From: a bacterium
GTDB lineage: Bacteria; Patescibacteriota; Minisyncoccia; Minisyncoccales; MHMH01
Assembly (NCBI GenBank): GCA_030648815.1
Contig: JAUSHA010000029.1
Span: 1 to 19,473 of the forward strand
Length of the DNA stretch: 19,473 nt
Direction of reading: 5' to 3'
In this document: piece by piece, positions 12,381 to 13,197 of the stretch
How the letters are laid out: the number at the start of each line of letters is the position of its first letter
Numbering within the stretch: the first letter of the stretch is position 1
The notes under the pieces: model-generated
What the model was told of the DNA's origin: nothing
The model's database searches: none
What the model saw: the letters and a program-made list of their open reading frames with translations, nothing else
Program-made: the position numbers and the translations under genes

Positions 12381-12391
12381 ATTTTAAATAA

Positions 12392-12420
12392 GTTGGGCGG
12401 ACGTCGGGTCTCCGCCCAAC
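12392..12420. repeat. REP-like GC-rich palindrome, copy 1 (downstream of the RAYT-like gene)
   Basis: GTTGGGCGGA-CGTCGGGTC-TCCGCCCAAC is a perfect 10-bp stem, or 12 bp with the flanking AA/TT at 12390..12422. It lies in the 42-nt gap between the stop at 12423 and the next start at 12380, and may also act as a transcript hairpin. Confidence 0.8.
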
Positions 12421-12422
12421 TT

Positions 12423-13160
12423 TTATTCTAGAAATAACTCATAATATTCTTTAAATTTTCCTTTATATTTTATATAATCTTCAATAAATTTCTCGCACGC
12501 TCTTTCACCACCCGTGGTTTCTAACATAAATTCTCTATCTGTTACTGATGGAAAATTCGGCTTTCCTAAATAATCAGAAAAACTTGACCATTTATACTCT
12601 TTCGCAAATTTTATAGCTTTCTTTATGTCGCGGATGCCCCTTTCTTTCCATTTCGGCTCTATCAAGGAAACTGAATTAGCATGAATATACGCAAAAACAA
12701 TTTTTAACTGTTCGTCAGTCTTGATGAGGACTGACAAAAATCTGTTCTGAAAAACGTAACCCTTGCGGCCATGTTTTAAATTAAAATATCTAGCATACCC
12801 GCCGCCGAATTTCTTCATAAATTTCACAATTCCACCATCTTTAATCTGTCTTATTAATAAATGAATATGATTCGGCATCAAACAAAAGGCTATAATTTCC
12901 ACAAGTTTATCTCGTAAATCAGTTTGGGCGGACGTCGGGTCTCCGCCCAAACTCTCTGTTTTTTTGAGATATGCCTTCATTCTGGAGCGATCCCTTCGAC
13001 GCTTTAAAATCTCTACCGGATTTATTGTATTAAATTCGTAAATAGAAAAAATCCCCCGATAATAGTCATTGGTATCTTTGAAAAGTTTATTATCATCAAT
13101 GCCCCTTAAAATAACGTGATAAATTCCGTCGTTAATAAATTGTTCTTTTCTGTATGGCAT
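12423..13160 (-). CDS. REP-associated tyrosine transposase-like protein (IS200/IS605 TnpA Y1 / HUH family)
   Basis: GIYHVILRG is followed by the HUH motif CLMPNHIHLLI, then GYVFQNRF, the catalytic-Tyr helix FAYIHANSV and KWSSFSDYLG. The start is set at ATG 13160 (MPYRKEQF). The track's 13 extra N-terminal codons (MLGGRRVSAQTHN) are simply a translation of repeat copy 3. Confidence 0.75.
   Translation of the reverse strand: MPYRKEQFINDGIYHVILRGIDDNKLFKDTNDYYRGIFSIYEFNTINPVEILKRRRDRSRMKAYLKKTESLGGDPTSAQTDLRDKLVEIIAFCLMPNHIHLLIRQIKDGGIVKFMKKFGGGYARYFNLKHGRKGYVFQNRFLSVLIKTDEQLKIVFAYIHANSVSLIEPKWKERGIRDIKKAIKFAKEYKWSSFSDYLGKPNFPSVTDREFMLETTGGERACEKFIEDYIKYKGKFKEYYELFLE
12921..12953. repeat. REP-like palindrome, copy 2, embedded in-frame inside the RAYT-like CDS
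   Basis: AGTTTGGGCGGA-CGTCGGGTC-TCCGCCCAAACT has a 12-bp perfect stem and is 33 nt in total. It has the same loop orientation as copy 1. On the coding strand it begins exactly on a codon boundary and encodes SLGGDPTSAQT. Confidence 0.8.
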
Positions 13161-13167
13161 ATTGTGA

Positions 13168-13197
13168 GTTTGGGCGGAGACCCGACGTCCGCCCAAC
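13168..13197. repeat. REP-like palindrome, copy 3 (upstream of the RAYT-like gene, inverted relative to copies 1 and 2)
   Basis: GTTTGGGCGGA-GACCCGACG-TCCGCCCAAC has the same arms as the other copies. Its loop is the reverse complement of the loop in copies 1 and 2. It lies between the ychF stop (13199) and the RAYT start (13160). Confidence 0.8.

Follow-up and report, generated by a model that had tools for sequence, protein, structure and literature searches.

A probable domesticated TnpAREP-like gene with three cognate stem-loops, one of them in frame inside the gene, in a Patescibacteria genome

A 19,473-nucleotide (nt) stretch of DNA from a bacterium of the Patescibacteriota (Minisyncoccales; assembly GCA_030648815.1, contig JAUSHA010000029.1), here called the window, carries on its minus strand a gene whose product resembles TnpAREP, also known as RAYT, the tyrosine transposase associated with repetitive extragenic palindromes (REPs). 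The gene is accompanied by three copies of one GC-rich stem-loop, all within 810 bp, located before the gene, after it, and in frame inside it. We consider it probable, at roughly 0.68, that this is a domesticated, vertically inherited gene for a TnpAREP/RAYT-type Y1/HUH single-stranded DNA endonuclease, held in a minimal REPtron-like cassette with three cognate stem-loops. Across homologous loci the hairpin is lineage-specific and matched at the three sites of each locus, which shows concerted evolution. An initial annotation of this DNA, made from the sequence alone, had described a RAYT-like gene bracketed by inverted copies of a palindrome.

Three exact copies of the hairpin are present in the window. 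The motif TTGGGCGGA-N9-TCCGCCCAA was found at 12393-12419, 12924-12950 and 13170-13196, each with no mismatch, in a search of the whole 19.5 kb that allowed up to two mismatches, and gave no match in 200 dinucleotide-preserving shuffles. A search of the window with a 17-nt core and up to three mismatches recovered only the same three sites, in agreement with the earlier count of three copies and none elsewhere. On the plus strand the loop reads CGTCGGGTC in copies 1 and 2, while copy 3 has the reverse complement, GACCCGACG, which bears out the reported inversion of copy 3 relative to copy 1. Folding of each copy as single-stranded DNA gave -10 to -14 kcal/mol, with z values of -4.3 to -7.3 against shuffles. 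The upstream hairpin (copy 3, 13170-13196), with a 9-bp stem and a 9-nt loop, is located between the ychF stop codon (13199) and the true ATG of the RAYT-like gene (13160). The downstream hairpin (copy 1, 12390-12422), in which the stem extends to 12 bp and which is oriented as copy 2, begins immediately past the stop codon of the gene and ends 10 nt short of the hydrolase start. These two copies do bracket the gene as described, but the middle copy, whose position had been overlooked, is intragenic. This internal hairpin (copy 2, 12921-12953, minus strand) has a 12-bp stem and a 9-nt loop and makes up codons 70-80 (SLGGDPTSAQT) of the gene in frame.

Two other features at these sites were considered and set aside. 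In a scan of 12200-13400, a minus-strand Rfam T-box match (12391-12536) that overlaps the downstream hairpin scored 21.9 bits compared to a gathering score of 93, and was attributed to chance. An inversion switch acting between the perfect 31-nt inverted arms at 12924-12954 and 13166-13196 was rejected as a general mechanism, as the relative orientation of the copies is not conserved between lineages.

The protein encoded by the gene belongs with the Y1/HUH enzymes. The open frame at 12423-13199 corresponds to 258 residues, and the inner start at 13160 gives a protein of 245 residues (12423-13160, minus strand, stop included), recognized from Pfam Y1_Tnp, alignments, and AlphaFold with Foldseek. 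The 13 upstream codons (MLGGRRVSAQTHN, 13161-13199, minus strand), which read through copy 3, are spurious as had been proposed, because the NCBI protein and all homologues start with MPYRKEQF. Such a false extension of the reading frame arises because the hairpin carries no stop codon in any frame (the 33-nt unit is free of stops in all six), and in the homologue P0008 the upstream hairpin is likewise read as an N-terminal extension. In loci L122-L124 (the P0025 locus; homologous loci are given L numbers), the opposite error was seen, in that the called 223-residue protein begins at an internal methionine and the conserved MPYR... start lies in frame upstream, so that the gene call is too short. 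The Pfam Y1_Tnp match (E 4.8e-11) is confined to residues 83-161. The HUH motif (H98-I-H100, 12861-12869) and the catalytic Tyr158 (12687-12689) were both noted previously as being retained, and this holds across the family, as H98, H100 and Y158, along with N162, are invariant in an alignment of 96 homologues. The motifs read NHIH and FQ, and the family consensus around the tyrosine is YIHANP. This corresponds to the class-2 TnpAY1 signature, Y-x-x-x-N-P, rather than the Y...Q of class 1 (Quentin 2018, PMC6006769). The C-terminal tail is 80 residues long and contains a YKWSS motif.

A search of PDB sequences with the family profile gave no match, and a fold search with Foldseek was therefore used. 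The top solved structure for the AlphaFold model (mean predicted local distance difference test score, pLDDT, 77.6) was 4ER8_A, E. coli TnpAREP with a REP hairpin (E 2.8e-6, TMt 0.63), with the IS608, ISDra2 and IS200 transposases ranking after it. The residues encoded by copy 2 fall in a predicted linker between helix 51-69 and strand 87-94, ahead of the HUH strand (98-105), and residues 72-80 have pLDDT below 50. The NCBIfam IS200 model reached 16.9 bits compared to a cut-off of 55. Taken together, the assignment of the protein as a Y1/HUH enzyme of the TnpAREP (RAYT) kind, and not as an IS200-type transposase, is supported. The family is large, with more than 1,600 clusters at 90% identity matching at E <= 1e-3. 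The best 120 of these are 59-100% identical to the query, and several are named Nealsonbacteria or Patescibacteria. In a library clustered at 50% identity, 141 representatives matched at E <= 1e-30.

About 38 homologous loci were fetched in order to compare their layout. Nearly all have a GC-rich hairpin 5-60 nt before the ATG, a second at nt ~190-235 of the coding sequence, and a third just past the stop codon, and this arrangement recurs among homologues with 42-80% identity. In 30 of 38 loci, the best perfect hairpin across the entire coding sequence was centered at nt 180-240 (binomial P ~2e-25). The stem sequence varies by locus (TTGGGCGGA, GCGGAG, AACAGAGG, ATTGGGAGG, ACGGAGGA and ACACGGGT are examples) yet is common to the three sites within one locus. 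Within a locus, the longest shared word had a median of 19 nt for the internal-downstream and upstream-downstream pairs and 14.5 nt for the internal-upstream pair, compared to a median of 8 nt and a 95th percentile of 12 nt between different loci. In distant homologues, at 27-39% identity, the internal hairpin is again a copy of the flanking hairpin of the same locus. It is located before HUH in L071-L073 and L112 (nt ~165-200 of the coding sequence) and between HUH and the tyrosine in L082 and L084 (nt ~391-433). The three-site layout is a built-in feature of the family and not an accident.

The likeness of the three sites is evident from the core common to all three copies, which is GGAGACCCGACGTCC in the window, GGAAACCCGACGTCC in L120, GGAGACCCGACCTCC in L119 and GGAGGCCCGTCCTCC in L121. 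The window, L120 and L121 are syntenic at the RAYT locus, and L119 has a different gene context. In L121, the internal and downstream copies have identical stem mismatches, and the inverted upstream copy has a similar form.

Covariation was examined on a gapless alignment centered on the loop of the best hairpin of each sequence. Changes on both sides were seen in all eight stem pairs tested, and the covariation score was 0.70 compared to 0.16 in shuffles. Paired cells made up 86%, a fraction inflated by the centering, compared to 26-43% when the partner column was slid. As this centering favors pairing, the analysis draws its information from the slid control and from the double changes. In a structure-blind MAFFT alignment of nt 170-270 of the coding sequence, the hairpins fell in the same columns but out of pairing register, which is lost because loop lengths differ, and this alignment was therefore not used for pair counts. 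In one compensatory example, GGC...GCC in the window (Gly...Ala) corresponds to GTC...GAC in L037 (Val...Asp). The peptides encoded at the internal hairpin vary accordingly (GDPTS, GPSS, RGRAS), and in some lineages the loop is flipped inside the open reading frame. The peptide was considered as the conserved feature and was rejected on account of these compensatory codon changes and flipped loops. It is the nucleic-acid structure that is conserved and not the peptide, with compensatory changes altering the encoded residues.

Each copy can be found in either orientation, depending on the lineage. The flanking palindromes, described initially as having a REP-like arrangement, are indeed opposite in the window, as are the upstream and downstream copies in 15 of 21 loci, and the internal copy has the same orientation as the downstream copy in 16 of 26. 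A role at the level of DNA is favored by this, because after a flip one of the two DNA strands still carries the hairpin, but the RNA loop is changed.

The genes around the cassette indicate how it has been inherited. As reported initially, the cassette sits between ychF and a hydrolase gene, with YchF (13199-14266) on one side and Ser_hydrolase (11838-12380) followed by a HI0933-like flavoprotein on the other, all on the same strand. The adjacency of ychF and the RAYT-like gene is common to the window, L037, L120 and L121, in which the proteins are merely 75-80% identical, and L035 and L036 are syntenic with each other. Because the ychF synteny holds across such lineages, it points to vertical inheritance and not to an active insertion sequence. 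Each locus has one copy of the cassette at a conserved position and no tnpB.

The cassette is absent from some close relatives. L125 and L128 are ~92% identical in nucleotide sequence to the window and collinear with it, but blastn showed that both are missing 11797-13198 (minus strand), a variable segment that takes in the hairpins together with the RAYT-like gene, Ser_hydrolase and the opening codons of the HI0933-like gene. In L125 its place is taken by 81 nt (4566-4646) with a small hairpin, GGGCGAG-g-CTCGCCC, and then ACAATA, a sequence that also follows the upstream hairpin of the window. The junction hairpin may be a relic of the upstream hairpin. The same 81 nt contain an apparent duplicated fragment of the HI0933 5' end (GATCTTATAGTTATCGGCGGC...). 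In L129, whose ychF is 82% identical in nucleotide sequence to that of the window, the HI0933-like gene comes directly after ychF. A tblastn search of the L125, L128 and L129 loci found no homologue of the RAYT-like gene. At least two losses of the cassette have thus taken place, several gains at one site being less likely, and the cassette is dispensable.

Copies outside the three sites are few and are found inside genes. Dispersal was assessed with 15-nt cores and up to one mismatch for 27 loci in their own flanks, on partial genomes only, with a cross-locus control. The 175 kb of own flanks yielded two extra copies, both in L037, compared to none in 3.6 Mb of the control, and there was none in the 18 kb of flanks in the window. 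An earlier version of this test, which required the 7-bp stem of the internal copy, was too strict and missed the two L037 copies. These are located in the HI0933-like gene and in the enolase gene, both in frame. In addition, the HI0933-like gene of L129 contains an exact 25-nt match to the window hairpin, and secA of L002, a Nealsonbacteria reference genome, contains an exact 30-nt match that encodes the same LGGDPTSAQT; both are in frame, and the hairpin is 100% identical in the window, L129 and L002. The intragenic copies observed use three different frames. Among the orthologues of the HI0933-like protein that were listed, the great majority are empty at the site, and three clusters carry a hairpin peptide, RTSG[LV]R. 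A scan of genome contigs for the stems with any loop, which demanded perfect 9-bp stems and would miss variant copies, gave 34 matches, and only that in L002 was the same element. The other 33 have unrelated loops and come from unrelated phyla, and were discounted as chance or ordinary hairpins. Viral contigs searched with a 23-nt core gave no match. The many dispersed copies with intergenic bias that had been anticipated were therefore not borne out. That the palindrome is almost confined to its locus is one of the observations named initially as counting against a REP link; another, a protein that clusters with IS200, was not found.

Other palindromes of this general form were seen in coding sequences. 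In the HI0933-like gene of the window, a 21-nt in-frame palindromic insertion, GCCATGCCTGCCGGCAGGCAG (11347-11367, core 11348-11363), encodes the peptide AMPAGRQ. It is absent from the 92%-identical L125, as seen at the DNA level, and from 93-94%-identical orthologues, including the L128 protein. This palindrome is not the RAYT hairpin and has the look of an inverted duplication of local origin. It shares the protein loop in which L129, L037 and P0131 carry a RAYT-type hairpin. In L035, the threonyl-tRNA synthetase gene contains an in-frame hairpin (TACAGAC-gtcgggc-GTCTGTA, 1041-1069). Its type is that of the hairpins on either side of the RAYT gene in L122-L124 and not that found at the RAYT gene of L035 itself.

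The cassette shares several features with known systems. With E. coli TnpAREP (4ER8; Ton-Hoang 2012), the window protein has in common the fold, the HUH motif and a tyrosine in a Y...N context. As in the E. coli REPtron, there is a syntenic, vertically inherited gene, single in each locus, with cognate palindromes flanking it, mostly in opposite orientation, and the hairpin and the protein lineage change together. However, the window protein has 245 residues compared to 165, with an insert of ~35 residues before the HUH strand and an 80-residue tail, the window is without the GTAG tag, the hairpins are neither abundant nor extragenic, and a third cognate copy lies within the gene in frame. For subclass 2.4, in-frame REPs inside tnpAREP genes have been described in a variable region between HuH and Y, along with 'double-foot' GT[AG]G...CTAC REPs (Quentin 2018, PMC6006769). 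TnpAY1 subclass 2.4 (Bertels group 4) is thus similar in having cognate copies inside the gene, with the frame intact, in a peripheral variable region, and some relatives of the window locus also have 'double-foot' hairpins. In this case, however, the insert comes before HUH at one fixed position, compared to between HuH and Y and with variable length in subclass 2.4, though the internal hairpins of L082 and L084 are at a 2.4-like position. Furthermore, FQ and YIHANP (YIHANS in the window) take the place of WQ and YIxNNP, a WSS tail is present where subclass 2.4 has none, the host belongs to the Patescibacteria, and extragenic copies are nearly absent. This separation is made by published motif descriptions.

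Palindromic repeats in frame within genes were reportedly also described by Ogata in 2000 as the Rickettsia palindromic elements. Compared to RPE-1, the unit here is far shorter (~27-37 nt) and its copy number is apparently low. In its dispersal, the hairpin resembles the intragenic REPs of Di Nocera 2013 (PMC3733652) and not the pattern that defines REPs, since short palindromes are found in frame in housekeeping genes (secA, enolase, HI0933-like) whose orthologues have empty sites. The difference from both intragenic REPs and Rickettsia palindromic elements is that the dispersed copies here match the hairpins of one specific Y1 gene. A literature search found no paper on this Patescibacteria family or on the three-site layout, which is not proof of absence. 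The system is best described as an extension of a known kind. It is a REPtron-like cassette in minimal form, in which an in-frame cognate hairpin is conserved and dispersal is coding rather than extragenic.

How such a cassette might work can be proposed from its relatives. TnpAREP acts on cognate REPs by cleavage and strand transfer, and the two co-evolve (Corneloup 2021, PMC8266576). By analogy with this E. coli enzyme and its REPs, the predicted substrates of the encoded enzyme, for binding and for cleavage or strand transfer, would be hairpins formed on DNA that becomes single-stranded during replication or transcription. Strand transfer among neighboring cognate sites would keep the three sites similar. 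Where a genome is almost devoid of intergenic space, copies might persist only in the two very short flanks and within protein loops, the latter being possible because the length of the unit is a multiple of three and it is open in all six frames. The internal copy would then be a substrate site that is tolerated and renewed continually, rather than a coding feature.

Several observations weigh against this reading. The window protein reads YIHANS, with serine replacing the signature proline, and its match to the NCBIfam REP_Tyr_transpos model, at 45.1 bits, is below the cut-off of 80 and aligns residues 83-164 only. The RAYT identity proposed initially is thus upheld by the fold, by the higher score relative to the IS200 model and by the family motif, but not by the family cut-off or by the motif of the window itself. 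The foot of the window hairpin reads GTTG, so the canonical 5' GT[AG]G tag is absent, although GTAG or GTGG feet are present in L037, L040, L043 and L121. The very low, intragenic dispersal is unlike the high-copy extragenic pattern of REPs, and L045, L064 and L122 are missing the internal copy but have kept the flanking copies; in L122-L124 the upstream and downstream hairpins are present and the internal one is absent. The inflated paired fraction noted above belongs here as well. The likeness of 9-12 bp arms at three sites could equally arise by selection for binding or by template switching, without enzyme-driven strand transfer. Finally, cleavage of the hairpins by the window protein is predicted from what is known of Y1/HUH enzymes.

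A rather unlikely alternative, though one with several points in its favor, is that the internal hairpin is a selected self-target. The enzyme would bind or nick hairpins in and around its own gene, either to control its expression or to start a local DNA transaction, with the three-site layout as the working unit and the dispersed copies as by-products. Consistent with this, the internal position is held down to 27-39% identity (L071-L073, L112), where a neutral insert should have decayed, the hairpins are nearly confined to the locus, and the complete identity of the hairpin in the window, L129 and L002 stands against only 82% identity of ychF between the window and L129. On the other hand, several lineages dropped the internal copy and kept the gene and the flanking copies, and the whole cassette is dispensable in near relatives. 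The relative orientation is also not fixed (15/21 and 16/26), which argues against a defined inversion or excision switch. It is improbable that the hairpins are instead RNA elements, terminator-like or mRNA-stabilizing, in a ychF-RAYT-hydrolase-HI0933 transcript and unrelated to catalysis. The flanking copies do lie right past stop codons among tightly packed, co-directional genes, the palindrome in many loci runs on into ends that are A-rich on the 5' side and T-rich on the 3' side (AAAAGT...ACTTTT), as in bidirectional intrinsic terminators, and REPs are known to stabilize upstream mRNA (PMC3733652). A terminator inside the gene's own reading frame, secA, enolase or the HI0933-like gene would, however, be harmful, orientation flips give a complementary RNA loop while the DNA unit persists, and a role in RNA gives no account of a hairpin sequence that tracks the lineage of one protein. 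A consensus terminator scan called none of the three hairpins, but it is uninformative on them because its loop limit of 8 nt excludes 9-nt loops by construction.

The remaining two explanations are less likely still. Symmetric arms with a short spacer would suit a dimeric repressor, and symmetry-preserving covariation alone cannot tell a hairpin from a symmetric duplex site, so the palindromes could be double-stranded operators bound by a dimer, for example via the 80-residue C-terminal tail. This is very improbable, as the arms differ almost wholly between lineages and would require repeated re-tuning of specificity, and all characterized Y1 enzymes, including those among the PDB matches, recognize folded single strands. 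The L121 mismatches (G-T and G-G, on one strand), which are kept in the internal and downstream copies and similar in the upstream one, are likewise typical of strand-specific folded substrates. The other reading, in which the locus is an autonomous IS200/IS605-type insertion sequence with the flanking hairpins as its left and right ends, is largely refuted. The Y1_Tnp domain, the subterminal-looking hairpins on both sides, and the presence or absence of the cassette among close relatives would fit, and the locus shares with the TnpA of IS608 and ISDra2 the Y1/HUH fold and flanking hairpins that are presumably recognized as folded single strands. However, the same ychF-adjacent position is occupied over long divergence, in lineages with 75-80%-identical proteins, no second copy was found in any locus examined, and the flanking hairpins are mostly in opposite orientation and not in the same one. 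The absence of tnpB, the Y...N(P) motif in place of the class-1 Y...Q (PMC6006769) and the low score with the IS200 model also argue against it, and the indels in L125 and L129 take in the hydrolase and have boundaries other than the two hairpins.

Elsewhere in the window, two further islands were identified by comparison with relatives. The segment 6319-9047 is missing from L125 and L128 and contains an open reading frame of 830 residues (6516-9008). The domains found in this frame are Major Vault Protein shoulder, Vault_3 and Band_7, and its presence is unusual for a Patescibacteria genome. A second island (14273-15794) is present only in the window relative to L125. It contains an open reading frame of 420 residues (14413-15675) with several Cys/His pairs and no Pfam match, and strong GC-rich hairpins lie on both sides of this frame (14364-14395, 15733-15759 and 15768-15798).

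RAYTs are widespread domesticated transposases for which the cellular role and the mode of REP dispersal are unsettled. The cassette in the window is a stripped-down case, in a genome of ~1 Mb with a handful of hairpin copies and three cognate sites in 810 bp, one of them in the open reading frame of the enzyme. It combines clear concerted evolution of the three sites with natural knock-outs in 92%-identical relatives. It also indicates that REP-like units in gene-dense genomes can reside inside coding sequences, which has a bearing on how short palindromes shape protein loops. For annotation, a consequence is that such hairpins yield false extensions of reading frames and odd GC-rich peptide loops in proteins. 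As a tentative possibility, the three-site layout may be the functional unit of a large Patescibacteria HUH family, serving self-regulation or homogenization of the sites, with REP-like units persisting as 'coding REPs' in the loops of housekeeping proteins. If this is true, the cassette would be a minimal and tractable RAYT system in which to test the long-unknown cellular role of RAYTs.

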